Assembly: GCA_001800185.1 (NCBI GenBank)
Contig: MGUX01000167.1
Location: forward strand, 19,937-56,132
Reading direction: 5' to 3'
DNA length: 36,196 nt
Origin: Elusimicrobia bacterium RIFCSPLOWO2_12_FULL_59_9
GTDB taxonomy: Bacteria; Elusimicrobiota; Elusimicrobia; O2-12-FULL-59-9
Part shown: one piece after another, positions 4,277 through 36,196 of the stretch
Numbering within the stretch: position 1 is the first letter of the stretch
Layout of the letters: each line of letters begins with the position of its first letter
Position numbers and translations under genes: made by a program
Notes under the pieces: model-generated
Database searches by the model: none
Seen by the model: the letters and a program-made list of their open reading frames with translations, nothing else
What the model was told of the DNA's origin: nothing

Positions 4277-4475
4277 CCCGAATTCCACGGTTGGAATTCG
4301 CCCGCAGGGACGTCGCTGTAAAACAGCGACGGGGTTGTCCGGCGCCTGGGGCGCAAGCACGCTGGAGGCCACGGGCCTCCCGGCTAGTACCCGAAGCTCT
4401 GCGTAGGGTGCAACCGCAGCGGCTTCCGGACAATATTCTCAGACACAGGAGGAACCGCAACTGCGGTTTTCGGGC
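4276..4475 (+). mobile_element. MITE-like repeat, family A, copy 2 (200 bp, flanked by TA/TA inside a CTAG)
   Basis: Homologous to the reverse complement of 173-320, with an internal insertion of about 50 bp. It lies exactly between the moaA stop (TA|A) and the tatC ATG (TA|G ATG). Internal hairpins differ in sequence between copies but keep their pairing (CGTCGCTG-taaaa-CAGCGACG here versus CCGCC...GGCGG in copy 1). Confidence 0.65.
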
Positions 4476-8385: not shown

Positions 8386-8411
8386 ATCCCCGCGTTCCGG
8401 CTAAAAAGAAG

Positions 8412-8483
8412 TGCGCCCGACAGGAATCGAACCTGTACTTGCAGCTTCGGAGGCTGCCGTGATATCCTTTTCACTACGAGCGC
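8412..8483 (-). tRNA. tRNA-Arg (anticodon CCG), CCA not encoded
   Basis: Hand-folded cloverleaf. Acceptor GCGCTCG/CGGGCGC (one G-U pair), D arm GTGA-AAAGGATA-TCAC, anticodon arm GCAGC-CTCCGAA-GCTGC, 4-nt variable region, T arm ACAGG-TTCGATT-CCTGT, discriminator A. Confidence 0.9.
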
Positions 8484-8602: not shown

Positions 8603-8676
8603 TGTACCCCATTATGGTCGGCGGGCCATGCCGCCGGATAGAGCCCTGCGCGGCGCTGACCAGTGGCAGCGCCCCG

Positions 8677-8769
8677 TACCACTCTACCACTTTACCACTC
8701 TACCACTTTACCACTCTACCACTTCCCCCCTGCCACTCGATCACTTTACCACTTGACCACTGACCACTT
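8677..8769 (-). repeat. tandem octamer array, 11 units of TACCACTY (minus strand RAGTGGTA)
   Basis: Six perfect alternating units TACCACTC/TACCACTT, then a C6 spacer, then five degenerate units (TGCCACTC, GATCACTT, TACCACTT, GACCACT, GACCACTT). The array lies 7 nt downstream of the alaS stop on the minus strand. Confidence 0.9.
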
Positions 8770-8775
8770 CCCCAT

Positions 8776-11493
8776 CTATCCCTCGCCTTTTTCTATGATT
8801 TCCGCTAAATAATCTAGCAAATCTTGCCAGGGGGCGCTTAGCTGGCCGCCGCCTTGGGCGAAATCGGGGCGGCCGCCGGCGCTGCCGTTGTATTTTTCAG
8901 CCAGGCGCTTGGCCAGGCCCGAGGCTTGCAGGCCGGCCAGGTCGGGGCTCAGGCCGAGAACGAAAGAAAAAGAAGGCGGCGTCAGGTTCGCCAGAAATAC
9001 GACGGATTTTTTCTCCGATTTGCGCCACCGATCGGCCACGGCGCGCAATTGGGAGGCGTCGGCGTTCTCAAATTTCCGGGACAAGAGCCGTATCCCCCCG
9101 TGAAGCTCGCGCTCTTCCCCGGCTTTTTCAGCTTCCTTTAATAGTTTTTTTCCTTGTATATTTTTTATCGCCAGACGCAGCTTTTTTTCGCGCTCTTGGT
9201 AGCCGTCCAAATCCGCCTTAAAACCGCCCTGGGCCTTGGCGCCGGCTTTCGCCTGGTCTGTTCCCGCGAATTTAAGCGCCTCCTCCGCCCCTTGCGGCGA
9301 AAGACGCCGCAGCTCCCCTATGAGCTCCTCTTCTTTGGCCTTGGCCGCCGCGACGCGCTCCCGCAAAACGCGCTCCTGCTCCTGCCGGAACTCTTCCACC
9401 TTGGCGCCCGCCACCGCCTCCACGCGCCGCACCCCGGCCGCGACGGAAGACTGGCGGGGAATTTTAAAGCCTCCGATGACGCCGGTGCGCTGCACGTGCG
9501 TCCCGCCGCAGAGCTCCAAGCTGAAGCGCTCCCGGGGATCATCCCAGCCCTTGGCGCCGATCAAGAGAAAGCGCGGACAATCCCCGTATTTTTCTCCGAC
9601 CAAAGTCACCGCGCCAAGCTCCTCTACCTCCCCCGCCGGCCTTTCCTGAGGAGACACCGGATAATCCTGGCCGATGATCTCGTTGACCATGCTCTCGATT
9701 TTTCCGATTTCCTCGGGAGTCAGGGCCTTGGGATGGGTGAAATCAAAACGCAGATGCTCCGGATCCACCAACGAACCGGCCTGGCGCACGTGCCGCCCCA
9801 AAATCCGCCTAAGGGCTTCGTTTAAAAGGTGCGTGGCGGTGTGATGATTCATCGTCGAGCGGCGCGATGTCTCGTCCACCTGGGCGCTCACCGTCTCGCC
9901 CGCCTCGATGGTTCCCTCTTCCATGACCCCCCGATGAATGAGGACGTTTTCCATCATCTGCGCGTCCCTCACGCGCATCCGCCCTCGCTCGCCGACAATG
10001 ACTCCACGATCGCCCACCTGTCCGCCGCCCTCGGGATAAAAGGGCGTGCTGTCCAGCACCACCAATGTCTCATAGCGAGGATCATCGGGCGCCTTGTGGT
10101 CCGCTATTCCCAAAACCTTCGCCTTCAAAGACATCGTCTCATAACATTTTTTTTTCGTTTTGAGCCCCTGCCACTTTTCAAGCCGGGCCACGGCCGAAGC
10201 CGCCACGGCCGTCACTCCCGAGCCCTTCCAGCCGGCGCGCGCCAATTCCTGGGCGTCTTTCTGCGCCTTTTGAAAACCGGCCTCGTCGATGGAGCGCCCC
10301 GCGGCCGCGGCGATCTCCCGGGTCAGCTCCAACGGAAATCCATAGGACTCATAGAGCCGGAAGGCGACTTCGCCTGGAAGATGCTTGGGATATTTTTCAA
10401 AAAGCTCCTTGAGCACCGCCTCGCCCGTCTCCAAAGTATTTAAGAAACCTTTTTCTTCCATTTCCGCGGCGATTTCCACCTGGGAGCGCGCCGCCTTGAT
10501 CTCGGGATACGCCCCCTCGAAAATCTCCGCCACCGGGGCCACCAATTGGCGCAAAAAGGCCTCGCGCTTTCCCAAAAGCCGGCCGTAGCGCACCGCCCTG
10601 CGAATGAGCCGCCGCAGGATGTAGCCTCGCCCTTCGTTGGAGGGCACCAAACCCTCCGACAGCAGCATGACGGCCGAGCGCATATGGTCGCCGATGATGC
10701 GAAAGGCCTCCTTTTCCTTTGGGGTTTTGCCCGTGAGCTCGGCAATTTTTTCCGTCAGCGGAGCGAAGAAGCTGGTCTCAAACGGGCTCGTCTTGTTTTC
10801 TAAAACCATCGCCAGCCGCTCAAGCCCCATGCCGGTGTCTATGTTTTTTCTTGGAAGGGGCGCCAAGCTCCCGTCCTCTTGGCGGTCAAACTGAGTAAAC
10901 ACCAGATTCCACAGCTCCATGTAGCGGTCGCAGTCGCAGCCGGGGGCGCACTCCGCCCGTCCGCAGCCGGAGCCGGGTCCCGAATCGAAATAAATCTCGG
11001 AGCATGGCCCGCACGGCCCCGTGGGGCCCATCGTCCAGAAATTGGACTCCTCGCCCAGGCGCGTGATGCGCGCTTTAAGTCCAGCCCCGGACAAGACCTT
11101 TTCCCAGATGCCGAAGGCCTCGTCGTCTTCCTTATATATGGTGACGTGGAGCCTGCGCGCGTCCAGGCCCGCTTCCACGGTCAGGAACTCCCACGCCATG
11201 CGGACCGCGTCCTCCTTGAAATAGTCGCCGAAGGAGAAATTGCCGAGCATCTCGAAGAAAGTCAGGTGGCGGCGCGTAAACCCCACGCGGTCAATGTCGG
11301 TGGTGCGCAGGCACTTCTGGCAGCTCGCGGCCCTGGAGACTCCCTTTTTGAGACCCAAGAAATAGGGCTTAAACGGCACCATGCCGGCCGAGGTGAAAAG
11401 CAAGCTCGCGTCTCCCTGCGGAACGAGGGAAATCGGGGGAAAGATTTGGTGGGCGTTTTTCTTGAAATAATTCAGGAATTGTTTGCGCATCAT
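8776..11493 (-). CDS. alaS: alanine--tRNA ligase
   Basis: 905 aa. Class II catalytic core (FTSAGMVPFKPYF, RHLTFFEMLGNFSFGDYFK), editing-domain HTATHLL...CGGTHV motifs and a C-terminal DHHA1-like GGRPDFAQGGG. Confidence 0.97.
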   Translation of the reverse strand: MMRKQFLNYFKKNAHQIFPPISLVPQGDASLLFTSAGMVPFKPYFLGLKKGVSRAASCQKCLRTTDIDRVGFTRRHLTFFEMLGNFSFGDYFKEDAVRMAWEFLTVEAGLDARRLHVTIYKEDDEAFGIWEKVLSGAGLKARITRLGEESNFWTMGPTGPCGPCSEIYFDSGPGSGCGRAECAPGCDCDRYMELWNLVFTQFDRQEDGSLAPLPRKNIDTGMGLERLAMVLENKTSPFETSFFAPLTEKIAELTGKTPKEKEAFRIIGDHMRSAVMLLSEGLVPSNEGRGYILRRLIRRAVRYGRLLGKREAFLRQLVAPVAEIFEGAYPEIKAARSQVEIAAEMEEKGFLNTLETGEAVLKELFEKYPKHLPGEVAFRLYESYGFPLELTREIAAAAGRSIDEAGFQKAQKDAQELARAGWKGSGVTAVAASAVARLEKWQGLKTKKKCYETMSLKAKVLGIADHKAPDDPRYETLVVLDSTPFYPEGGGQVGDRGVIVGERGRMRVRDAQMMENVLIHRGVMEEGTIEAGETVSAQVDETSRRSTMNHHTATHLLNEALRRILGRHVRQAGSLVDPEHLRFDFTHPKALTPEEIGKIESMVNEIIGQDYPVSPQERPAGEVEELGAVTLVGEKYGDCPRFLLIGAKGWDDPRERFSLELCGGTHVQRTGVIGGFKIPRQSSVAAGVRRVEAVAGAKVEEFRQEQERVLRERVAAAKAKEEELIGELRRLSPQGAEEALKFAGTDQAKAGAKAQGGFKADLDGYQEREKKLRLAIKNIQGKKLLKEAEKAGEERELHGGIRLLSRKFENADASQLRAVADRWRKSEKKSVVFLANLTPPSFSFVLGLSPDLAGLQASGLAKRLAEKYNGSAGGRPDFAQGGGQLSAPWQDLLDYLAEIIEKGEG

Positions 11494-20998: not shown

Positions 20999-22133
20999 GT
21001 GTAGTGATTCATAATTAACTTGACAATAACCCTCGACGAGAGCTATCATATGCATCATGCACCTCGCTCCACCCATCCTCTTGTCCCCGGGAGAACGGTC
21101 CACTTTGGCCGCGTGGGCACATGCGAAGAGCCAACCATTACGGGTTATTCAGCGCGCGCATATCATCACCATGGCTGCTAACGGCGTGACCAGCCAAGAC
21201 ATTGCGGAACAGTTGGGAATTTCTCGGCCAACGGTGCAACTGTGGCGAGAGCGATTCCTCGCCCTCCGAGTGGCCGGACTCGAGAAAGATGCTCCACGCC
21301 CCGGCCGCATCCCGACCATTTCCGACAGCAAGGTCCGAGCCATCGTTGAAGCCACTCTGCACACGAAACCACCCACTGCAACTCACTGGAGCACTCGAAC
21401 TATGGCCGAGGCCCAAGGCGTCAGCCAACCCACAGTTCACCGAATATGGAAGCAGCATAACCTCAAGCCGCACTTGGTCAAGACTTTTAAGATCAGCCGC
21501 GACAAACATTTTATCGAGAAGCTCTACGATGTAGTCGGGCCTTATCTCAATCCTCCGGACAAATCCATTGTCCTGTGTGTCGACGAGAAAAGCCAAATCC
21601 AAGCCCTCGATCGCACCCAGCCAGGCTTACCAATCAAGAAGGGGCGCTGCGGCACGATGACGCATGATTACAAGCGCAACGGCACGACTACTTTGTTCGC
21701 GGCTCTCAGCATGCTCGATGGCAAGGTGATTGGCGAATGTATGCCGCGCCATCGGCATCAAGAGTTCATCCGCTTCCTCAAAAAGATCGATAGCGAGACT
21801 CCTTCTGGGTTCGATCTGCACATCATCGCCGACAACTACGCGACCCATAAGCATCCGCGCGTCAAATCCTGGCTGCAACGAAATCCGCGGTTCCATCTAC
21901 ACTTCATCCCAACTTCCAGTTCTTGGGTCAACATGGTGGAGCGCTGGTTCCGCGAAATCACCGACAAGCGCATCCGGCGCGGCATCTTCAAAAACGTGCC
22001 GGAGTTGATCGCCGCCATCCAAGAGTACCTGGACAATCATAACCAGAACCCACGCATCTTTACGTGGACCGCGTCCGTTGAACAGATTTTGGCGAAGGTC
22101 GCCAAATGTAAAGAAGCGTTGGTATCACTACAC
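20999..22133 (+). mobile_element. IS630-family insertion sequence (about 1.13 kb) in a CTAG target with TA duplication
   Basis: Ends GTGTAGTGAT...ATCACTACAC (terminal inverted repeats). Flanks read c-TA-[IS]-TA-g, the classical IS630/Tc1-mariner CTAG target with TA duplication. One DDE transposase ORF fills the element. Confidence 0.88.
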
Positions 22134-22136
22134 TAG
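21057..22136 (+). CDS. IS630-family DDE transposase
   Basis: N-terminal HTH (SQDIAEQLGISRPTVQLWRERF), second HTH (GVSQPTVHRIWKQHNLKPH), and DDE triad context VDEKSQIQAL / IIADNYATHKH / SSWVNMVERWF. The stop codon TAG is formed with the flanking TA duplication. Confidence 0.93.
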   Translation: MHLAPPILLSPGERSTLAAWAHAKSQPLRVIQRAHIITMAANGVTSQDIAEQLGISRPTVQLWRERFLALRVAGLEKDAPRPGRIPTISDSKVRAIVEATLHTKPPTATHWSTRTMAEAQGVSQPTVHRIWKQHNLKPHLVKTFKISRDKHFIEKLYDVVGPYLNPPDKSIVLCVDEKSQIQALDRTQPGLPIKKGRCGTMTHDYKRNGTTTLFAALSMLDGKVIGECMPRHRHQEFIRFLKKIDSETPSGFDLHIIADNYATHKHPRVKSWLQRNPRFHLHFIPTSSSWVNMVERWFREITDKRIRRGIFKNVPELIAAIQEYLDNHNQNPRIFTWTASVEQILAKVAKCKEALVSLH

Positions 22137-24175: not shown

Positions 24176-24204
24176 TTGATTTCATCCGACTCTTGTGCTA
24201 AACT
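24176..24204 (+). promoter_or_regulatory. candidate sigma70 promoter of the MNT/HEPN pair
   Basis: TTGATT - 17 nt - TAAACT, with TG at the extended -10 position (TGcTAAACT), about 40 nt upstream of ATG 24243. Confidence 0.4.
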
Positions 24205-24242
24205 CACCTGAGGCCGGCGCTGACGGAATCGCGGTATTTCCC

Positions 24243-24566
24243 ATGCAAAAACCACAAATTGATCTTGATCGAGAAATTGTAAAAGAAATCATCAAGACCA
24301 TCTTGAACTACAAAAATGTGGACAAAGTCGTTCTCTTCGGATCCCGCGCGAGCGCCACTTCCCGGGAAACATCCGACATCGACATAGCCATTTTCGCCAA
24401 ACCATGGTCGGACAAGGACACGAACATGGTGAAGCATCTGCTGGATGAATCGGTAAGCACTCCGCTGAAATTTGACGTAGTTCATTTCGGCGCCGTCGCC
24501 AAATCCGCGCTTCGCCGGGCGATAGTGACTCAAGGCAAGGTGATCTATGAATCGCGAGAGGATTAA
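24243..24566 (+). CDS. minimal nucleotidyltransferase (MNT), HI0073-like antitoxin-type
   Basis: LFGSRASATSRETSDIDIAIF is the GS-x(n)-D-x-D Pol-beta-type NTase motif. The small size and 20-nt overlap with a HEPN gene also fit. Confidence 0.85.
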   Translation: MQKPQIDLDREIVKEIIKTILNYKNVDKVVLFGSRASATSRETSDIDIAIFAKPWSDKDTNMVKHLLDESVSTPLKFDVVHFGAVAKSALRRAIVTQGKVIYESRED

Positions 24567-24945
24567 GGAGATTTACCTCGATTATAAAAAGGCCTTGGAG
24601 AGGCTTAAGGCCGCCTTAAATGAGGACACGGCCAAGGGAAGCATCATCGTCGACGGCACGATCCAGCGATTTGAGTTTTGCTTCGAGCTGGCATGGAAAC
24701 TGGCCAAGGCGCTGTTGAGCTTCGGCGGAATTGAGGCGGGCACGCCGAGGATGGTGGTCAAGGAGGCCCATCAAGCCAATCTGATAAAAGACGGGCAGGG
24801 TTGGATCGACATGCTGGAAGATAGGAACAAGACGTCCCACATTTACGATGAGAAACAAGCGCTCAGGATTTACAAAAAGATCAAAGGGAGTCATTTCAAG
24901 CTTCTGTCGAATTTTTGCAAAGCCGTCGATACAGACGCCCTGTAG
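24547..24945 (+). CDS. HEPN-domain protein, HI0074 (nucleotidyltransferase substrate-binding) family
   Basis: IQRFEFCFELAWKLAKALL and an Rx4H motif (DRNKTSHIYDE), characteristic of HI0074-type HEPN proteins. Confidence 0.85.
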   Translation: MNRERIKEIYLDYKKALERLKAALNEDTAKGSIIVDGTIQRFEFCFELAWKLAKALLSFGGIEAGTPRMVVKEAHQANLIKDGQGWIDMLEDRNKTSHIYDEKQALRIYKKIKGSHFKLLSNFCKAVDTDAL

Positions 24946-29294: not shown

Positions 29295-29994
29295 TCTATC
29301 CGGCGTGCACAGCGCTTACGGCCCCATCGAGGTCCTCAAGGACGTCACTCTCGCGGTCCGGGAGGGAGAAATCGTCGCCCTCATCGGCGCCAACGGCGCC
29401 GGAAAAACCACGACGCTCATGGCCGTTTCGGCGATCCACAAAATCAAAGCGGGCGAGATTCTTTTCAACGGACGCTCCATCGCGGACGCGGCCCCGCACG
29501 AAATCGTGCGCCTTGGTATTTCGCAGGTTCCGGAAGGCCGGCGCATTTTCCCGCGGATGTCCGTTGAGGAAAACCTGGAAATGGGCGCCTATGCCCGAAA
29601 TTCGGACCTGGAAATCCGCAAGGATTTGGAGCATGTCTTTCAATTATTTCCCATCCTAAAGGAAAGGCGGCGGCAGCTCGGAGGCACTTTGAGCGGCGGG
29701 GAACAGCAAATGCTCGCCATCGGCCGGGCGCTGATGGCGCGTCCGAAGCTTCTTCTCCTGGATGAGCCGTCCCTGGGCTTGGCGCCCAAGATAGTCTCTC
29801 AGATATTTTCCGTCATCAAGAATTTGAACGCGGAAGGCGTGACGATACTTCTGGTGGAGCAAAACGCCTTTGCCGCGCTCAAGCTCGCCCACCGCGCCTA
29901 TGTGCTCGAGACGGGGCGCGTCGTTTTGTCGGGCGAAGCCGCCGGCTTGCTCACAAACCCGCAGGTCCGCAAGTCCTATCTGGGAATCAATTAG
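29287..29994 (+). CDS. livF: branched-chain amino acid ABC transporter ATP-binding protein LivF
   Basis: Walker A GANGAGKTT, signature LSGGEQQMLAIGRAL, Walker B LLLLDEPSLGLAP and C-terminal NPQVRKSYLG. Confidence 0.95.
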   Translation: MLDLSGVHSAYGPIEVLKDVTLAVREGEIVALIGANGAGKTTTLMAVSAIHKIKAGEILFNGRSIADAAPHEIVRLGISQVPEGRRIFPRMSVEENLEMGAYARNSDLEIRKDLEHVFQLFPILKERRRQLGGTLSGGEQQMLAIGRALMARPKLLLLDEPSLGLAPKIVSQIFSVIKNLNAEGVTILLVEQNAFAALKLAHRAYVLETGRVVLSGEAAGLLTNPQVRKSYLGIN

Positions 29995-30143
29995 CCAAAA
30001 AGGACAAACACTACAACACGGTATATGTTTTTACCCGGTATACTTTGAGAATTCAACTTAATTATTCCTGAAGCCAAAAATACCCGGAAAATCAACCGCT
30101 TTTAGCCGCCTAAGAAACCCCCTTAAGCCTTTCTTAAGCCCGC
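29951..30143 (+). repeat. direct repeat DR1 (about 190 bp: last 14 livF codons + AT-rich non-coding block)
   Basis: Aligns by eye over its full length, at roughly four-fifths identity, with 31153-31342. The shared blocks are TCACAAACCCGCA.GTCCGCAAG, ATGTTTTTACCCGG, GAATTCAACTTAAT, CCTGAAGCC.AAAATACC.GGAAAATCAACCGCTTTTA and CCTTAAGCC.TTCTTAAGCC. Confidence 0.85.
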
Positions 30144-30151
30144 CTTACAGG

Positions 30152-31006
30152 TCACTGTCGAGGCGCGGCCGCGGCGGTGGAAAGGGAGAGGTCGGGGAGC
30201 GTCGCGCTCGAGAGGTCTACGCCCTCCACGGCGCCCATGGAGCCGGCGACCGCCGCGGTGGAGACCAGGACCTCCTCCATGCCGACCTCTTCTTCCTCGG
30301 TCAAAAGGCCCGAGGCGCGCATGCGGGCCATGATGCGCCGGCTGTTGCGGTCCACGTAGCGGCCGCGCTTGGCCGGGTCGTGACGGCGCGGGCTGGGCAG
30401 GACCACGGCCAGGGCCACGGCCTCGTCCACGGAGAGATCCGAGGCGCTCTTGCCGAAGTACGCCCGGCTTGCGGCCTCGGCGCCGAAGATGCCCTTGCCC
30501 CATTCCGCGATGTTGAGGTATATCTCGAAGATGCGGCGCTTGCCCAGGACCTTCTCGAGCTTCCGGGCGATGAGCGCCTCCTTGAGCTTGCGCAGCGGGT
30601 TTTTCGAAGGCGAGAGGTAGAGGTTGCGCGCCGTCTGCTGGGTGATGGTGCTGCCCCCATAGGCCAGGCGGCGTTCGGCGATGTCGCGCTCGAGGGCCAC
30701 GCGCACCGCGTCCCAGGCCACGCCGTGATGCCTATAGAAGGAATCGTCCTCGGCCGTGAGCACCGCGTGCTTGAGATTCTCCGAGATGGCGTCCCAAGCC
30801 ACCCAGGTCCACTGCACGGCGAGTTTTTTCCCTTTGGCGAGGGCCTGGCGCCGGCGCAGCTCGATGTAGGCCGTCGTGGAAGGGTTTTTTCCCTTAAGCT
30901 GGGAAACGTCGGGCAGCCACGCCAGGTACAAAGCCGAGGCGGCGCACGCGGCGAGCAGAGACCAGGTCAGCACTTTCGCGAAGCGGCGCATAGGAGCGTC
31001 AGACAT
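30152..31006 (-). CDS. mtgA: monofunctional biosynthetic peptidoglycan transglycosylase (GT51)
   Basis: N-terminal TM anchor and GT51 motifs EDDSFYRHHGV, GGSTITQQTARNLYL and RKLKEALIARKLE. It has no transpeptidase domain and carries a C-terminal extension of about 60 aa. Confidence 0.9.
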   Translation of the reverse strand: MSDAPMRRFAKVLTWSLLAACAASALYLAWLPDVSQLKGKNPSTTAYIELRRRQALAKGKKLAVQWTWVAWDAISENLKHAVLTAEDDSFYRHHGVAWDAVRVALERDIAERRLAYGGSTITQQTARNLYLSPSKNPLRKLKEALIARKLEKVLGKRRIFEIYLNIAEWGKGIFGAEAASRAYFGKSASDLSVDEAVALAVVLPSPRRHDPAKRGRYVDRNSRRIMARMRASGLLTEEEEVGMEEVLVSTAAVAGSMGAVEGVDLSSATLPDLSLSTAAAAPRQ

Positions 31007-31152
31007 TCGCTCATTTTACTTTTTCCGCGCTCTCGACAAAATCGGTTCCGCAGCGGACACGAAATCCGTGTTCGCGAAGCAAGGTTCTGATTATAGGTAG
31101 GAAGTTGCCGCGATAATCGGCGGTTAAGAAATTTTTTTGGCCCTCGGCGCGT

Positions 31153-31342
31153 TCACAAACCCGCAAGTCCGCAAGGCCCATCTGGGAATCGAATAGTTCA
31201 GAAGATAAAAACCCCAGCTAATGTTATGTTTTTACCCGGAATAATTTAGGAATTCAACTTAATATTTCCTGAAGCCGAAAATACCTGGAAAATCAACCGC
31301 TTTTATCCGCCTCAGAACCCTCCTTAAGCCCTTCTTAAGCCG
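31153..31342 (+). repeat. direct repeat DR2 (decayed livF 3' end + AT-rich block)
   Basis: Contains an orphan reading frame AFTNPQVRKAHLGIE-stop (31149-31196), matching the livF tail LLTNPQVRKSYLGIN-stop. The same AT-rich block as DR1 follows. Confidence 0.85.
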
Positions 31343-31506
31343 CAAGTGGCGGCGGCGCGACGCCAATAAGGGCGCTCCCCGCAAACGCATTTTTGAGGCC
31401 TTGAAAAATAAAATGCCACCTTCTATATTTCACGATGCCTGGGGCGGCAGCGGAAAAATTTGACCCGGCGTGCATTGACGCGATAGGAGATTCATTGAGC
31501 GGGGGT

Positions 31507-31884
31507 TCAATGGGGCAGTTGTTGGGGCGGTAGATGAAGATTGAGCCGTTTCGCGGCCCGATGGAGAGCCTTATCCCGGCTCCATATCTTGGCATGTCCA
31601 AGACGCGCCGAAGCCATGAGATGAACGTCCACCGCGCCTAGTCCCGACCCATAAAGCCTTTCAGCGGCGATAAACTCAAGCGCCTCTTCATGCGATGCCG
31701 CCGGCGCTTTCGGCAGGGCGCGCAGAAGGTCAAGCAATTCAACGCGGCGCAAAATATTGCCGCAGGCCAATTCCTCGATCACCAGCGGATGAATGAGCAC
31801 CAGGCCCTCGGCGAGCATGGCCGCCAGCTTTGAGTCTCCGCTCCTTAGGTGATCCACCCAAACGGAGGTATCGACGAGTATCAC
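31507..31884 (-). CDS. vapC: PIN-domain ribonuclease toxin VapC
   Basis: ILVDTSVWVDHLR (first acidic residue), EL..G and DVHLMASA pattern. 125 aa, with a GTGA overlap with the upstream antitoxin. Confidence 0.88.
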   Translation of the reverse strand: MILVDTSVWVDHLRSGDSKLAAMLAEGLVLIHPLVIEELACGNILRRVELLDLLRALPKAPAASHEEALEFIAAERLYGSGLGAVDVHLMASARLGHAKIWSRDKALHRAAKRLNLHLPPQQLPH

Positions 31885-32066
31885 CGCCGCCGCCGAATTC
31901 TCTTGATATGCGGCTCGGAGCCGCCAAGCGCCGCAAGGCGCTCCCGAGCCTTCTTCTCGATCAAGGCTTCCAGTCCGGCGTGGACCAGCGCGGTCTTTTC
32001 ATGCAAGCCGGCCAGTTGCGCGGCCCGCTTTAGGATATCATCCCGCAGGATCAGTGTTGTTCTCAT
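31881..32066 (-). CDS. vapB: VapB-type antitoxin (DUF2191-like)
   Basis: Internal ATG gives MRTTLILRDDILKRAAQLAGLHEKTALVHAGLEALI, the typical MRTTL.IDD.LL antitoxin start. The track's longer N-terminus runs through promoter and repeat sequence. Confidence 0.8.
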   Translation of the reverse strand: MRTTLILRDDILKRAAQLAGLHEKTALVHAGLEALIEKKARERLAALGGSEPHIKRIRRRR

Positions 32067-32069
32067 ACA

Positions 32070-32102
32070 TATTAGTATGCATCCCACATATGCATTTGTC
32101 AA
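32070..32102 (-). promoter_or_regulatory. candidate vapBC promoter with twin ATGCAT operator half-sites
   Basis: The minus strand reads TTGACA-aatgcatatgtgggatg-CATACT..ATG. The -35 is perfect, the -10-like element lies only about 9 nt before the ATG (near-leaderless), and two ATGCAT palindromes (32077-32082, 32090-32095) sit in the spacer. Confidence 0.4.
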
Positions 32103-32110
32103 GAGCTCGC

Positions 32111-32162
32111 GGGTTTCGACAAAACCCCCGTTTGTCCCGTTTGTCAAGCCAGGCGCTGATTC
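32111..32162 (+). repeat. junction repeat copy A
   Basis: GGGTTTCGACAAAACCCCCGTTTGTCCCGTTTGTCAAGCCAGGCGCTGATTC matches the consensus GGTTYCCSRACAAAAYCCCCCGTTTGTCMCGTTTGTCAARCYAGGYRC.GATT shared with copies B-E. Confidence 0.85.
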
Positions 32163-32217
32163 CCAATCCTTAAGTTATGTTAAGTCAAGACCCCTTTATC
32201 GTTTATTTCTTCGGCTA

Positions 32218-32312
32218 GTGTAGTGCGTCCAACGCTTCTTGACATTTGCTCTCGTCGATCAAGCTCGCTCTTCGACGGGAGGATATGTAAAGGGATATAT
32301 GACGCACTACAC
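32218..32312 (-). mobile_element. 95-bp MITE derived from the IS630-family element at 20999-22133
   Basis: Perfect 12-bp terminal inverted repeats GTGTAGTGCGTC/GACGCACTACAC. Flanks are c-TA-[MITE]-TA-g (CTAG target). The subterminal sequence CCAACGCTTCTTGACATTTG matches the right end of the IS (CCAACGCTTCTTTACATTTG, reverse complement). The other end resembles the IS left end, so the MITE is inverted relative to the IS. Confidence 0.85.
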
Positions 32313-32332
32313 TAGAAAGGGCCCCGCGGCCC

Positions 32333-33109
32333 TCAGGGCTTCTTTTTCGGCTGCGCATCCTTCGCGGGAGCCGCGGCGGGCGGCTTGACGATATCGAGCA
32401 GCTCGACTTCGAAGATGAGCGCCGCCCCGCCGGGGATGACGGGCGGGCTCCCCGTGTCGCCGTAGGCGATCTTGGAGGGGCAGACCAATTTTGCCTTGCC
32501 GCCCACCTTCATCTTCTGCACGCCCTCCGTCCAGCAGGGGATGACCCCGTTGAGGGGGAACTCGGCGGGCTGGCCGCGCTGAACGGAGCTGTCGAAGACC
32601 TTCCCATCGGTGAGCGTCCCGTGGTAGTGGACCTTGACCTTGTCGGTCGGCTTGGGCGAGTCGCCCGTGCCGGCCTTGATGTCCGTGTAGATCAATCCGG
32701 AGGATGAAACCGAGGCGCCCGGCTCCTTGGCGGCCTTGTCCAGGAAGCTTTTTGCCTTAGTCTTCTCCCGCTCGGCACTCTTGCCCACGCGGGACTGATT
32801 GAGAGCTTCGAGCTTGGGGCCGTAGACTTGGAGGTCCACCTGCGGTTCCTTGCCGAGGGCGGCGTCGCGCAAGCCGAGCTCGACGAAGCCCACTTCGGAG
32901 GCGCTCAGCGAGAACGCCGCGAGATTCCGGCCGACGACCAAGCCGAGGGCGTAGAGGGTCTTCTCCTCTTCCGTGCTGGGGGCGGCTTGGGGGGCCTGTT
33001 TCGCCGCAGCTTTCGGCGCCTTCGGCGCAGGCGCGCTCGATGCGCCGGCCGCCAAGGCCGGAAGGGCGGTGAAGGTGAACAAAAAGAAAACGGCGGTGAG
33101 CAATCTCAT
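32333..33109 (-). CDS. FKBP-type peptidyl-prolyl isomerase (FkpA/FklB-like, secreted)
   Basis: Signal peptide, N-terminal dimerisation helices and FKBP_C domain VKVHYHGTLTDGKVFDSS...FPLNGVIPCWTEGVQKMKVGGKAKLVCPSKIAYG...LIFEVELLDI. AGGAG precedes the ATG. Confidence 0.92.
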   Translation of the reverse strand: MRLLTAVFFLFTFTALPALAAGASSAPAPKAPKAAAKQAPQAAPSTEEEKTLYALGLVVGRNLAAFSLSASEVGFVELGLRDAALGKEPQVDLQVYGPKLEALNQSRVGKSAEREKTKAKSFLDKAAKEPGASVSSSGLIYTDIKAGTGDSPKPTDKVKVHYHGTLTDGKVFDSSVQRGQPAEFPLNGVIPCWTEGVQKMKVGGKAKLVCPSKIAYGDTGSPPVIPGGAALIFEVELLDIVKPPAAAPAKDAQPKKKP

Positions 33110-33375
33110 TTTATCTCCTATATGACGCGATGTGCGAGCCGCGAAAGCATATCATTTCTATCGAGGCTTTTCCTTGAAAAACGCGTCGAAATCCGCCTTG
33201 GCGTTCCGCTCGGAAGACTGCTTCCGGGGCGCTTCGGACTATCTCCTTCCCCGCCGCCGCCCAATTTACCTGCGCCACCCTCCGGCAGGCCGCAAACGCC
33301 CGCCATGTCGCCAGGATGCCGGAACGCCGAAAACATCGTCAGCTTTTATTTTTTGCCCCACAGAACCCCGCCACA

Positions 33376-33426
33376 GTCCCCAACAAAATCCCCCGTTTGT
33401 CCCGTTTGTCAAACCAGGTACTGTTT
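33376..33426 (+). repeat. junction repeat copy B
   Basis: GTCCCCAACAAAATCCCCCGTTTGTCCCGTTTGTCAAACCAGGTACTGTTTC, in the same orientation as copy A. Confidence 0.85.
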
Positions 33427-33460
33427 CTGTTTATTTAATCACATTGCAATATAGAAGTTC

Positions 33461-34651
33461 ATGTTCTATAATTCAAGCATGTTGCGGCGCTTGGCCCGGA
33501 CTCGGCTGGCATTCCTTCGGCGCATATTCCCGGTCGTGATGGTCATCGGTCCGCGTCAGTGCGGAAAAACCACCCTGGTGCGCGGCGAACTCCCAAAGTG
33601 GCGCTGTCTGGACTTGGAGAGGCCGCGGGATTGGAACATCCTGACTGCGGACCCCGAAGGGTTCTTCGCCGACAACCCAAAGCAGGTGATTATTGACGAG
33701 TCGCAAAGATATCCCGAGCTCTTCCCTCTTCTCCGGCATATCGTCGACCAAGACCGGCGGCCGGGCCGCTTCGTGCTCACGGGCTCAGCCCAACCCAGCA
33801 TGATCCGGCAAGCCGGCGAGAGCTTGGCCGGCCGGGTGGGAATCTTGGATCTCACGCCCTTCACCGCGCAGGAGCTTTCAACGCGGCCCTCATGGCTGGC
33901 ACAACGTTGGTTCTGGGGTGGATTTCCTCCCCTGTACAAACTTAGGACCGCGGCCGACAAGCGGGAATGGCTTGAGAGCTACATCGCGACGTTTCTCGCG
34001 CAGGACCTGCCGGGCCTTGGCGTGACGGTGTCCCCAACGCGCCTGCGCCGGTTCTGGACCATGGCGGCGCACCTGCATGGCCAGATACTCAGCCTCTCGG
34101 AACTGGCTCGCGCGATGGACCTTTCATACCACACGATCGCGCATTACCTCGACATCCTTGAAGGCGCCTTCGTGATCCGACGCCTTAAACCTTACCATGC
34201 CAACGTGGGCAAAAGGCTTGTTAAAAGCCCTAAGCTTTACATTCGCGACACCGGTATACTTCATTCGCTTCTTGGGCTGCGCGGCCCAACGGATCTGGAG
34301 GGATGGCCCGGCGTCGGCGCCTCCTTCGAGGGGCTGGTGGTCGAGGAGTTGGCCGTGCGCATGGGAATTGTGGGCGGCGGCCACATATTCTATTGGCGCA
34401 CCCAGGCCGGAGCGGAGGCCGATTTGATCCTGGAAGCAGGGAGGAAGCGCCTCGCCGTCGAAATAAAAACCGGACAGGGCCTTGATCCAAGGCGCTTGGC
34501 CGGTCTTAAGAGCTGCATGGCGGACCTGGGGCTGCGGCGCGGGGTCGTGCTTTACGGAGGGGCCGAGCGCTTGAAGTTGGGGCACGGGATCGAGGCCATC
34601 CCATGGCGGGACTTGGAACGCGGCGGAAAGATCTGGCCCGGCGTGTGCTGA
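33461..34651 (+). CDS. AAA-type ATPase with DUF4143-like C-terminal domain
   Basis: Walker A IGPRQCGKTTL, Walker B VIIDESQRYPELF, a winged-helix-like middle and a C-terminal EADLILE...LAVEIKTG resembling a PD-(D/E)xK nuclease core. The start could instead be ATG 33479. Confidence 0.8.
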   Translation: MFYNSSMLRRLARTRLAFLRRIFPVVMVIGPRQCGKTTLVRGELPKWRCLDLERPRDWNILTADPEGFFADNPKQVIIDESQRYPELFPLLRHIVDQDRRPGRFVLTGSAQPSMIRQAGESLAGRVGILDLTPFTAQELSTRPSWLAQRWFWGGFPPLYKLRTAADKREWLESYIATFLAQDLPGLGVTVSPTRLRRFWTMAAHLHGQILSLSELARAMDLSYHTIAHYLDILEGAFVIRRLKPYHANVGKRLVKSPKLYIRDTGILHSLLGLRGPTDLEGWPGVGASFEGLVVEELAVRMGIVGGGHIFYWRTQAGAEADLILEAGRKRLAVEIKTGQGLDPRRLAGLKSCMADLGLRRGVVLYGGAERLKLGHGIEAIPWRDLERGGKIWPGVC

Positions 34652-34777
34652 CCCGCAGGATTATCGAAAAAACTCACGACACGACATAGCATCAACGCAT
34701 TGGGAGGCCGTTCTTAGGCGCTTGGTTTTGAAATTTAACATCCCGGCCCTCGGCGGCACCCGCCCCCTCATCCCATC

Positions 34778-34830
34778 GGTTTCCGACAAAATCCCCCGTT
34801 TGTCACGTTTGTCCAAGCAGGTGCGGATTC
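34778..34830 (+). repeat. junction repeat copy C
   Basis: GGTTTCCGACAAAATCCCCCGTTTGTCACGTTTGTCCAAGCAGGTGCGGATTC. It abuts the stop codon of the antidote gene at 34831. Confidence 0.85.
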
Positions 34831-35145
34831 TTACTTTCGGACGGACTCTTGACGAATCGCCATGCAGACCTTGGCCACTAACTCCAAACTCGGCATCACC
34901 TTCTTATTGAGTAGGTTGTAAGCCGTCCTTCGCGGAATGTGGTAGCGTTTCTCAAGCTGCGCCTTATTGAGATGCCGCAAGCTCGCTGCCAGAACCTCCC
35001 GGGCCGACTCAGAGTCGCCCTCTTCTAGGCACTCCATGAAGGTCTCGAACACGAGGTTCGGATTGCTCAGCGTAGCCGACGTGTCGTGATCGAGCAGTCT
35101 TATTCTGCGATCCTTTCTTTGGCTCTTTCTCGAGTTCATCTTCAT
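34831..35145 (-). CDS. addiction-module antidote protein (HigA-like HTH, TIGR02684-type)
   Basis: Pattern LSNPNLVFETFMECLEEGDSESAREVLAASLRHLNKAQLEKRYHIPRRTAYNLLNKKVMPSLELVAKVCMAI. This matches the family signature (LedgD..., iarA.g.sqlA...G.sR..lY..L...gnP.l.tl.kv..Al). Confidence 0.7.
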   Translation of the reverse strand: MKMNSRKSQRKDRRIRLLDHDTSATLSNPNLVFETFMECLEEGDSESAREVLAASLRHLNKAQLEKRYHIPRRTAYNLLNKKVMPSLELVAKVCMAIRQESVRK

Positions 35146-35194
35146 ACCTCGCTTTCAATCTGCGGGCCTTGGCGATGTCGCTGGTTCCCAACAA
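35146..35194 (-). pseudogene. 3'-terminal stub of the cognate RelE/ParE-type 'killer' toxin gene
   Basis: The minus strand reads (L)GTSDIAKARRLKARYEDE directly upstream of the antidote ATG. This resembles the conserved C-terminus (GGDKS.Q..DI..AK.L...) of the killer proteins paired with such antidotes. Everything upstream is replaced by junction repeat D. Confidence 0.4.
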
Positions 35195-35235
35195 AATCCC
35201 TCGTTTGTCACGTTTGTCAAACTAGGTACAGATTG
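35183..35235 (+). repeat. junction repeat copy D
   Basis: GGTTCCCAACAAAATCCCTCGTTTGTCACGTTTGTCAAACTAGGTACAGATTG. Confidence 0.85.
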
Positions 35236-35261
35236 CAGGTGCCGATTTTGGGCCGAGCGAT

Positions 35262-35678
35262 CTAGGTTGGAGGAAAGTATTTGTAGAGGAACTCGCGGGG
35301 CGTTAAAATCTCGATTCCCTCAAAACGTCCCAGTGGACGAATATCTTTCAAGTCTCCCGTCACTAAGACGTCAGCCTTGGCGGCCAAGGCGCACTCTAGG
35401 ATTCGATTATCCGGCTCGTGACTGGCGATTACGTCGACCTTGGTCTTTGGCTGGACGACATGGGCAACTTCCTTGAGCGCCTCCAAGGTCTCGCGGATCT
35501 TTCCCGGCTCAAAACCTATCTTGGGTCGCGCCAGAACGCGCTCCAACTCCCAAAGGACGAAGGGCGACACGAATACCTGCAAACGGCCATCGGCGGCCAG
35601 AAGTAGAATCCGGCCCATCGGTCTCCTGGGATACAAGGCCGCGGAAACGAGAACATTGGTGTCGAGGACGATCCTCAC
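35262..35678 (-). CDS. PIN-domain toxin (TIGR00305-like)
   Basis: MRIVLDTNVLVSAAL, later acidic positions (SHEPDNRILECA, VLVTGDLKD), 138 aa, 6 nt downstream of an RHH gene. Confidence 0.85.
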   Translation of the reverse strand: MRIVLDTNVLVSAALYPRRPMGRILLLAADGRLQVFVSPFVLWELERVLARPKIGFEPGKIRETLEALKEVAHVVQPKTKVDVIASHEPDNRILECALAAKADVLVTGDLKDIRPLGRFEGIEILTPREFLYKYFPPT

Positions 35679-35684
35679 GAGAGC

Positions 35685-35924
35685 TCAGGATCGGAGTTCG
35701 TCGATCAGCCCTTCGATTTCTTCCTCTTTAAGCCCCTTGGCGCGGACTTTCTTTACCCCGTAGGTCTGGATGGCCTCCCACCGCTTCTTCCAGAAGTAGG
35801 CTCGGAGCGCCTCCCGGAAAAGGTCAGAACGCGTGCGACCCTCCTTGCGGGCGATCTTATCGGCGATGGCCAGCATCTGCGGAGGAACGGTAATCGTGAT
35901 CGGCTGCGCCTGCCGGTTCTGCAT
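35685..35924 (-). CDS. ribbon-helix-helix (CopG-type) antitoxin
   Basis: ITITVPPQMLAIADKIARKEGRTRSDLFREALRAYF is a typical RHH beta-strand plus two helices. GGGGGA SD. Direct TATGACT repeats (35934-35940, 35944-35950) lie just upstream as a possible operator. Confidence 0.8.
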   Translation of the reverse strand: MQNRQAQPITITVPPQMLAIADKIARKEGRTRSDLFREALRAYFWKKRWEAIQTYGVKKVRAKGLKEEEIEGLIDELRS

Positions 35925-36120
35925 TGGGTCCCCCTATGACTCTATATGACTTTATCATAGTTTACCAGGGAAAAGGCCGGATTTCAAGGGGAAAATTAAG
36001 TATGGTGTCCCCAGATTTCTGTCCCCAGATTTCCCTATTTTGGCCAGGGGAGGACGGCGGGCCACACCCCGCGCCTTCAAAGAGCAGGGCGTGGCTCACA
36101 AGCCTCAAGTTGTGTCAAGT

Positions 36121-36170
36121 CGATTCCGCTGAAAAACCCCCTCGTTTCATTTCGTGGGGCTGAGAATCCG
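36121..36170 (+). repeat. junction repeat copy E (degenerate)
   Basis: CGATTCCGCTGAAAAACCCCCTCGTTTCATTTCGTGGGGCTGAGAATCCG keeps the left half (ATTCCG..AAAA.CCCC.CGTTT) and GA.TCCG, but the second GTTTGTC unit has diverged. Confidence 0.5.
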
Positions 36171-36196
36171 CCTGTTGCCTAGACCGCCCAACAGGC

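Follow-up and report, generated by a model that had tools for sequence, protein, structure and literature searches.

Towards the right-hand end of a 36,196-nt stretch of DNA from Elusimicrobia bacterium RIFCSPLOWO2_12_FULL_59_9 (hereafter the window, to whose full length all coordinates refer) lies a series of small gene modules set apart by copies of a directly repeated unit of about 52 nt. We consider it an even proposition that these repeats are the junctions of a small chromosomal cassette-like array, situated beside the genes fkpA, mtgA and livF and recognised by a recombinase. Comparison with L024, a metagenome-assembled genome of a relative within the Elusimicrobia (NCBI GCA_016206405.1; 6-kb contig JACQRQ010000035.1), suggests that modules have been gained, lost and reordered by recombination events ending inside the repeats or at their edges, and the cargo carried by the array in the window amounts to three type II toxin-antitoxin (TA) loci and one candidate defence ATPase. 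A preliminary description of this DNA, made from the letters alone, had taken the repeats to delimit the modules of a cassette array built by site-specific recombination; the boundaries and the differences in module content from L024 bear out the first part of that proposal, while site-specific recombination itself is not established.

The unit, which was delimited at 51 nt in the repeat search, is present in four direct copies within 3.1 kb, all on the plus strand and 73–88% identical to the reference copy, with spacings between successive copies of 1265, 1403 and 405 nt. The copies and the sequences that accompany them are as follows:

32111 to 32161, plus strand: copy A, 44 nt upstream of the vapB start codon (E 3e-18).
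33245 to 33375, plus strand: preB, the left flank of copy B.
33376 to 33426, plus strand: copy B, between fkpA (minus strand) and the ATPase gene (plus strand), with an orthologous copy in L024.
34672 to 34778, plus strand: preC, the left flank of copy C, about 100 nt.
34779 to 34829, plus strand: copy C, the HigA-type antidote having its stop codon 1 nt from the right edge.
35184 to 35234, plus strand: copy D, its left edge adjoining the toxin stub and the PIN stop codon 27 nt to its right.
35237 to 35247, plus strand: a second right-end motif, AGGYRCNGATT, 2 nt after copy D.

An nhmmer profile built from the window copies recovers each of the four with E values from 3e-18 to 1e-20, and neither this profile nor an eight-copy profile that includes the L024 copies finds any further copy in the remaining 31 kb of the window. 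A 28-nt core pattern has three matches in the window against none expected by chance, and the right-end motif AGGYRCNGATT has four, all of them within the array and on the plus strand, against 0.37 expected. Five copies, all intergenic and on one strand, had been described at the outset; this holds for those at 32111, 33376, 34779 and 35184 and fails for the fifth, placed at 36121. The tandem 9-mer CGTTTGTCM (twice per copy), which had also been pointed out, is seen in every one of the four confirmed copies, and alignment of the copies brings out two dyads in the unit, an 11-bp GTTTG-T-CAAAC with a 1-nt centre and a pair of arms, AATCC...GGATT, that stand 32 nt apart. When read on the minus strand, most repeats come directly after the stop codon of the last gene of a module. 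If the four window copies are taken together with the four of L024, the edges of the unit are sharp and common to all eight, beside flanks that are unrelated, and exact identity between the window copies extends over merely 10–23 nt. The right part of copy C is distinctive (CGTTTGTCCAAGCAGGTGCGGATTC), and it adjoins HigA in L024 too.

The genes and elements that the repeats separate, together with the segment of this region that L024 lacks, are these:

31011 to 32360, no strand assigned: segment missing from L024, holding a possible remnant copy, a decayed livF 3′ end with its spacer, vapBC, copy A and a miniature inverted-repeat transposable element (MITE).
31507 to 32066, minus strand: vapBC operon (VapB of 61 aa, VapC PIN protein of 125 aa), with its own promoter at 32102–32074.
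32215 to 32315, no strand assigned: the MITE, 101 nt, whose inverted ends match the end of an IS630-family element at 21057–22136.
32333 to 33109, minus strand: fkpA-type periplasmic FKBP isomerase gene, a conserved flank gene that in L024 lies directly beside mtgA.
33461 to 34651, plus strand: AAA_14/DUF4143 ATPase gene with its own promoter at 33444–33472, missing from L024.
34831 to 35145, minus strand: HigA-type addiction-module antidote, matching the dnstrm_HI1420 family weakly, with a score under the curated cutoff.
35093 to 35179, minus strand: stub of a RelE/ParE-type toxin (upstrm_HI1419 family), the last 29 codons, its 5′ part and promoter missing.
35262 to 35678, minus strand: PIN_3 toxin, of which in L024 only the first 20 or so codons are left.
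35685 to 35924, minus strand: ribbon-helix-helix (RHH) antitoxin, with promoter/operator at 35987–35959.

These contents (vapBC, MITE with fkpA, DUF4143 ATPase, antidote with toxin stub, and the PIN and RHH pair) had been read from the open reading frames at the start, and Pfam, NCBIfam and PADLOC confirm them. In PADLOC the ATPase is matched by the defence candidate PDC-S01 (E 1.8e-98), and the array therefore combines TA pairs with a candidate anti-phage gene. The GC fraction is 0.53–0.56 in the HigA and PIN-RHH modules versus about 0.60–0.65 in the flanking genes, and the rest of the window holds housekeeping and signalling genes. By its FkpA homologues, too, the window belongs to the Elusimicrobia.

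The strongest evidence that the repeats act as boundaries comes from the L024 contig, which carries four repeat copies in 3.6 kb, all in one orientation. In a BLAST map of the two sequences most flanking genes are 93–95% identical (mtgA and fkpA 93–94%), the livF fragment 97% and the FkpA protein 92%, and the HigA-type antidote is 94% identical to its L024 copy. In the window the order is fkpA, copy B, ATPase, copy C, HigA with the toxin stub, copy D, PIN-RHH and a decayed copy; in L024, given in the orientation of the window, it is livF, mtgA, fkpA, repeat, the first 20 or so codons of PIN, RHH, repeat, HigA, full-length toxin, repeat, group II intron, repeat. Thus the PIN-RHH and HigA-toxin modules stand in reversed order in the two genomes, the ATPase and vapBC modules are absent from L024, and a group II intron module is present there instead. 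The preliminary description had suggested that relatives be compared for the presence and absence of modules, and the outcome is that both content and order differ in L024, with break points in or at the repeats.

Three kinds of junction bear on how these differences arose. First, L024 has a hybrid repeat between RHH and HigA. On its left it agrees with what comes after the RHH leader in the window (GGTGTCCCCAGATTT, 36005–36018), and on its right with the distinctive right half of copy C (CGTTTGTCCAA..AGGTGCGGATTCTTAC), a sequence that lies beside HigA in both genomes. Second, two genes are cut no more than 2 nt from the edge of a repeat. In the window only the final 29 codons of the toxin remain, the cut falling exactly at the left edge of copy D, so that the early remark that one copy sits where a toxin gene is cut off proved accurate; the stub (DIAKARRLKARYEDELEKEPKKGSQNKTA) belongs to a RelE/ParE-type toxin of 116 aa, whose full-length gene, with its promoter, is found in L024. 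Conversely, the L024 PIN gene retains only its first 20 or so codons, and the cut coincides exactly with GGATTC, the right edge of the repeat on the fkpA side. Third, the ATPase module of the window and the intron module of L024 both end in the same preC flank of about 100 nt, followed by the repeat. The RHH module, moreover, is 98% identical between the two genomes (8 mismatches in 400, with a non-coding leader identical at 94 of 94 positions) versus 94.3% for the flanking genes (Fisher p=0.0009), and because of this difference in identity the comparison suggests that the RHH module was exchanged more recently than its surroundings.

The intron module of L024 occupies positions 247–2195 on the plus strand of that contig and is a complete group II intron between two junction repeats, with matches to domains D1–D4 and to domains V–VI and a reverse transcriptase/maturase of 439 aa. 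Its 3′ end lies 27 nt from the repeat, within the apparent tail of a lost ORF. The intron reverse transcriptase is single-copy in the protein collection and led to no further loci.

Besides its four clear copies, the window contains one decayed copy and one sequence that might be a remnant:

36007 to 36048, plus strand: decayed fifth copy, closing the PIN-RHH module (p<=0.001 versus shuffles).
31031 to 31097, plus strand: possible remnant copy, weak (E=0.8 in the profile; two collinear sub-hits in the eight-copy profile; p=0.07).

In the decayed copy the left part, GTCCCCAGATTTC, is tandemly duplicated and is followed by a degenerate 9-mer and then by CCAGG. It is the positional homologue of a full L024 repeat, since the block of 98% identity with L024 stops at 36018, exactly where the L024 repeat lies. 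The possible remnant has the common ends (CGACAAAATC ... AAGCAAGGTTCTGATT) and a different centre, and it lies 20 nt inside the segment missing from L024; a fragment at 31034 had been offered from the beginning as a conceivable remnant, and with E=0.8 and p=0.07 against shuffles it can be kept as marginal only. The same segment holds the second of two copies of the livF 3′ terminus. Each copy comprises the final 57 nt of the gene with about 120 nt of the spacer downstream; they lie at 29938–30140 and 31140–31341, 1201 nt apart and 82–89% identical, on either side of mtgA, and the second is a gene fragment.

On the preferred reading, in which the repeats are junctions recognised by a recombinase, two directly repeated junctions would recombine, the intervening module would presumably leave as a circle, and the circle would re-enter at another junction and leave hybrid repeats behind it; an occasional reaction between a junction and an unrelated site would then truncate a neighbouring gene. 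Recognition of the site probably takes place on double-stranded DNA, through its tandem 9-mers, the 11-bp dyad and the outer AATCC...GGATT arms, and the acting enzyme, like the particular bases that it would bind, is something we infer: a dedicated or host site-specific recombinase encoded outside the available sequence. The tandem 9-mers might conceivably be arm-type or iteron binding sites, as suggested at the start. An enzyme that recognises the unit is favoured because the unit has sharp, common edges, because two truncations fall at those edges, and because exact identity between copies is limited to 10–23 nt.

The principal rival dispenses with such an enzyme altogether. In it the unit is a passive, lineage-specific repeat, non-functional or 3′-flanking sequence that spread locally along with the TA modules, and the rearrangements are the work of general, short-homology and illegitimate recombination with no dedicated crossover site; we regard this as a serious possibility, if not one that we would expect to prove right. 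A number of observations tell in its favour, weigh against recombinase-recognised junctions, or do both. The positions of exchange vary, being mid-repeat in the hybrid, at the right edge in PIN and at the left edge in the toxin stub. L024 carries a 195-nt preB flank plus repeat twice, as homologous recombination would give, and the 1350-bp indel at 31011–32360 is flanked by a 5-nt TTCGC microhomology and not by repeats, both of which general recombination typically produces. Look-ups by exact protein match brought up at least seven assemblies of this species, from several samples, and one module order is common to them all, with no ongoing shuffling seen. In neither the window nor L024 is a recombinase gene found, if one sets aside the intron reverse transcriptase and, 10 kb away, the transposase of the IS630 element (the absence of a visible recombinase from the window had been noticed from the start, and gene annotation there shows the IS630 transposase only). 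The L024 copy designated G is a bona fide copy with a divergent left arm, and the inverted elements are not conserved in every copy; nor does the unit display structure or covariation, as described below. Only two arrays are known, and therefore every rearrangement is inferred from one pairwise comparison; the clustering of the repeats holds for what was scanned outside the arrays, 31 kb in the window and 20 kb in L025, a more distant Elusimicrobia genome.

Nevertheless, a passive repeat accounts poorly for other features. RecA-type recombination in Escherichia coli usually needs about as much exact identity as 10–23 nt, or more, so that copies sharing such short runs are poor substrates. Exchange driven by homology does not predict two independent truncations within 2 nt of the repeat edges. 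The sharp edges that all eight copies have in common beside unrelated flanks, the strict clustering of the copies and their uniform orientation likewise sit badly with it.

A quite different explanation is that the unit is regulatory DNA (an operator, a set of iterons, a promoter or a terminator common to the modules) that stands at module borders merely because these are intergenic, and this we judge very unlikely. The tandem 9-mers and the 11-bp dyad would suit a regulatory site, as would a TTGACA on the minus strand of the unit and the position of the unit 38–44 nt upstream of vapB and HigA. However, no promoter-like or terminator-like site is predicted inside any repeat copy, and the intact modules are each served by a predicted sigma-70-like promoter of their own that lies outside the repeats; the early argument that the unit is no simple promoter or terminator is thereby sustained, and both readings were dropped on the ground that the predictions lie outside the copies. 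Furthermore, the position of the unit is inconsistent, upstream of some genes, downstream of others and once in the gap between a gene and the MITE; the RHH and vapB operators at their own promoters differ in sequence; and hybrid repeats and truncations at the edges would be left unexplained.

The tests for structure were uniformly negative. Single-strand DNA folds of the four window copies on both strands have z-scores from -0.3 to -1.65 with structures that differ from copy to copy, extended units that include the conserved left flanks fold no better than shuffles (z -1.5 to +1.4), and the consensus hairpins have no compensatory pairs and are broken in L024 copy G. A short bulged hairpin formed by the ACAAAA segment and a TTTGT unit had been suggested for each copy; its fold z-scores are at the level of shuffled sequence, with no covariation, and the suggestion does not survive. 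The hairpin and attC readings were dropped together on the folding, covariation and core-site tests. Terminal inverted repeats of the MITE type are absent from the 52-nt unit, and Rfam has no family for the repeats, for any part of 29500–36196 or for the sequence beyond the window.

The right-hand end of the array deserves separate consideration, as the fifth repeat had been placed there, at 36121–36170, as a degenerate copy. Both profiles miss it and its best alignment is no better than those of dinucleotide shuffles (p=0.39), so with the profile searches and the shuffle test negative 36121 was dropped as a repeat copy. It is, however, a real boundary, as the contig ends make plain:

36121 to 36196, no strand assigned: sequence right of 36121, found in at least two contexts in metagenomes, with a terminator-like hairpin on the minus strand.
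36150: end of two Logan (k=31) contigs.
36175: end of one scaffold from another pipeline.
36196: end of the window itself.
36261: end of three MEGAHIT k141 contigs.

In the order MEGAHIT, Logan, other scaffold and window, these ends lie 141, 30, 55 and 76 nt past 36120, and every assembly stops just after the array. Logan and MEGAHIT assemblies are built with the k values given, and the ends fit the pattern expected of a de Bruijn graph that branches at about 36121, each contig running k or k-1 bases into common sequence. A control comes from the MITE, a multi-copy element starting at 32215, where a Logan contig stops at 32244, 30 nt into it. Because the end offsets follow the branch pattern, the sequence to the right of 36121 must therefore occur in at least two contexts, and it is either a multi-copy element or the shared flank of alternative arrangements. 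The sequence from 36121 together with 65 nt beyond the window (L001 1–65) matches no Rfam family, no tRNA and none of the sequences retrieved; on its minus strand it contains a hairpin, CCCCACG-AAATGAAA-CGAGGGG, followed by TTTTT, which is terminator-like.

The fact that all assemblies break just past the array, so that more of an element could lie there, is one point in favour of a further explanation, tandem accretion, in which small integrative elements inserted serially at one att site beside fkpA and left attL/attR-type repeats, their integrases having decayed or lying past the contig end. The directly repeated units beside a conserved block, bounding different content in relatives, are also what such accretion would leave. 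Yet the modules are only 0.4–1.4 kb long with no integrase or integrase remnant in any module of the window or L024, and the repeat derives neither from a tRNA nor from the end of fkpA or mtgA (it is not part of either gene, and no tRNA or tmRNA attachment site was found in the array region, in L001 or in L024). The swapped module order and the hybrid repeat, in addition, require exchange between internal sites, and on these grounds we think accretion improbable.

How widely the unit is distributed can be stated within the sequence that was searched. There are no copies in the 20 kb around fkpA of L025, and none near homologues of the PIN-RHH pair elsewhere (a conjugative element, groundwater contigs and L028). 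Genome contigs and metagenome contigs were scanned with the pattern AAAAN{1,4}CYCGTTTGTCNCGTTTGTC; because the pattern is too strict, missing all the L024 copies, these scans are weak negatives. Eight scan matches, in Terriglobia, Planctomycetes and phage-like contigs, have unrelated neighbours and were rejected as chance or independent tandem 9-mers. Patterns for the left and right halves gave chance matches or none in viral contigs, and BLAST of flank plus repeat against plasmids and phages returned nothing relevant.

Two observations from these searches stand apart from the argument. In L028, a third lineage (Logan SRR12113410, 540–620), a PIN-RHH pair 85% identical to that of the window has another neighbour gene and no 52-nt repeat, and its boundary, AAGCAAGGGATTATG, resembles the right end of the weak remnant (window 31077–31097). 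In the unrelated phage-like contigs L009 (3640–3800) and L011 (5600–5700), several copies of TGTCCCGTTTGTCCCG lie beside replication-type genes (an AAA_25 ATPase in L009); these copies are possibly iterons, and their likeness to the tandem 9-mers of the window appears coincidental.

Returning to recombinase-recognised junctions, a bolder version can be formulated, namely that Elusimicrobia hold an undescribed cassette platform in which TA and defence modules are cut out and re-inserted at an unstructured, double-stranded site of about 52 bp, with tandem 9-mers between AATCC and GGATT arms, rather than at a folded attC. We offer this as a speculation and would rate it as unlikely in so specific a form. 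The recombinase of such a platform might be supplied by the host, as an enzyme of the Xer type, or its gene might lie past 36121, where the contigs break.

Some other features of the window are recorded here for completeness. The IS630-family transposase gene lies at 21057–22136, and the inverted ends of the MITE are 88% identical over 34 nt to this element, 10 kb away. Upstream of the liv operon, at 24195–24945, is a TA-like pair consisting of an NTP_transf_2 nucleotidyltransferase and an NTase_sub_bind protein (annotation on the public contigs L026 and L040), with no junction repeats nearby. About 12 tandem copies of an 8-nt unit (CACTYTAC/TACCACTN) occupy 8664–8769, between tRNA-Arg(CCG) at 8411–8483 and the end of the alanyl-tRNA synthetase gene at 8776. 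A 69-nt inverted repeat (233–301 and 4293–4361, 77% complementary), its arms 4 kb apart, brackets fur, dehydrogenase and moaA-like genes.

Among known systems, the closest in function is the sedentary chromosomal integron or CALIN. Such arrays share with this one co-oriented sites (attC, of about 50–130 nt) between small modules, mostly of a single operon; most sites come right after the stop codon of a module (here on the minus strand); and content and order vary between close relatives. Cassettes of chromosomal integrons are typically rich in TA and defence genes with their own promoters, and the cargo of the present array, TA and defence genes with promoters of their own, is typical in that sense. 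A classical integron cassette array or CALIN with unusual attC sites would draw further support from the small size of the modules, whose co-oriented sites are spaced at under 1.5 kb, from the group II intron within the L024 array and from the weak imperfect palindrome AATCC...GGATT, and still we find it scarcely credible. The unit lacks the attC-type hairpin (R''-L''/L'-R' with extrahelical bases). No attC core pair RYYYAAC...GTTRRRY, 45–150 nt apart, occurs on either strand of 31000–36196, and the relaxed pairs NNNNAAC/GTTNNNN are not common to the copies. Folding energies of core and extended units equal those of shuffles, and the pairs are lost in the divergent copy with no compensatory change. 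The exchange point deduced from the hybrid copy is central, whereas that of attC lies at the 3′ end of the site, and the right half of copy C moves with the downstream module, whereas an attC moves with the upstream one. There is no integron integrase gene (intI), attI or Pc in the window or in L024.

CRISPR arrays are more distant still, with repeats of 25–50 nt and regular spacers of similar length, in contrast to the spacing of 405–1403 nt with genes between that is seen here. The preliminary description had excluded both a canonical attC and a CRISPR array, and on both counts the attC fold, the core sites and the spacing agree with it.

The pdif (Xer) modules of Acinetobacter plasmids (PMC13141974, PMC9947245) offer a second parallel, in that short sites bound small modules, often TA modules, that are shuffled between contexts (between replicons in the case of pdif) with no linked recombinase, host XerC/XerD being thought to act on pdif. 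The sites themselves differ: pdif is 28 bp long, dif-like with an 11-6-11 arrangement and alternating in orientation, while the unit described here is 52 nt, always direct and chromosomal, and its alignment contains no dif-like core ATAA-N6-TTAT or 11-6-11 dyad. Tandem integrative elements, such as those of the SCC type and tandem genomic islands, likewise have co-oriented direct repeats of tens of bases beside a conserved gene, bounding accessory blocks that vary between strains; the modules here are 10–100 times smaller, have no integrase genes and are reordered internally. With REP, BIME and ERIC repeats the unit shares a short, non-coding, intergenic character and a frequent position just downstream of genes, and those repeats too can seed rearrangements, but they are palindromic and scattered genome-wide in both orientations, whereas the unit is unstructured, co-oriented and confined to one locus in the sequence available.

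The array is best filed as a repeat-bounded cassette array with a junction site that is not an attC. Among bacterial systems known to store single-gene cassettes and shuffle them, integrons are the principal one, and the foremost alternative so far proposed is the pdif modules of Acinetobacter plasmids. If the repeats are passive, the locus is still a clear case of a 50-nt repeat organising a variable islet of TA and defence genes, albeit of limited general interest. If instead they are junctions recognised by a recombinase, they would add a third type of junction site to these two, one from an uncultured phylum that branches deeply, with neither attC structure nor a dif-like core, and cassette-style storage of defence and addiction genes would have evolved more than once; the unit would then offer a sequence by which such arrays, along with their recombinase, could be sought in metagenomes.

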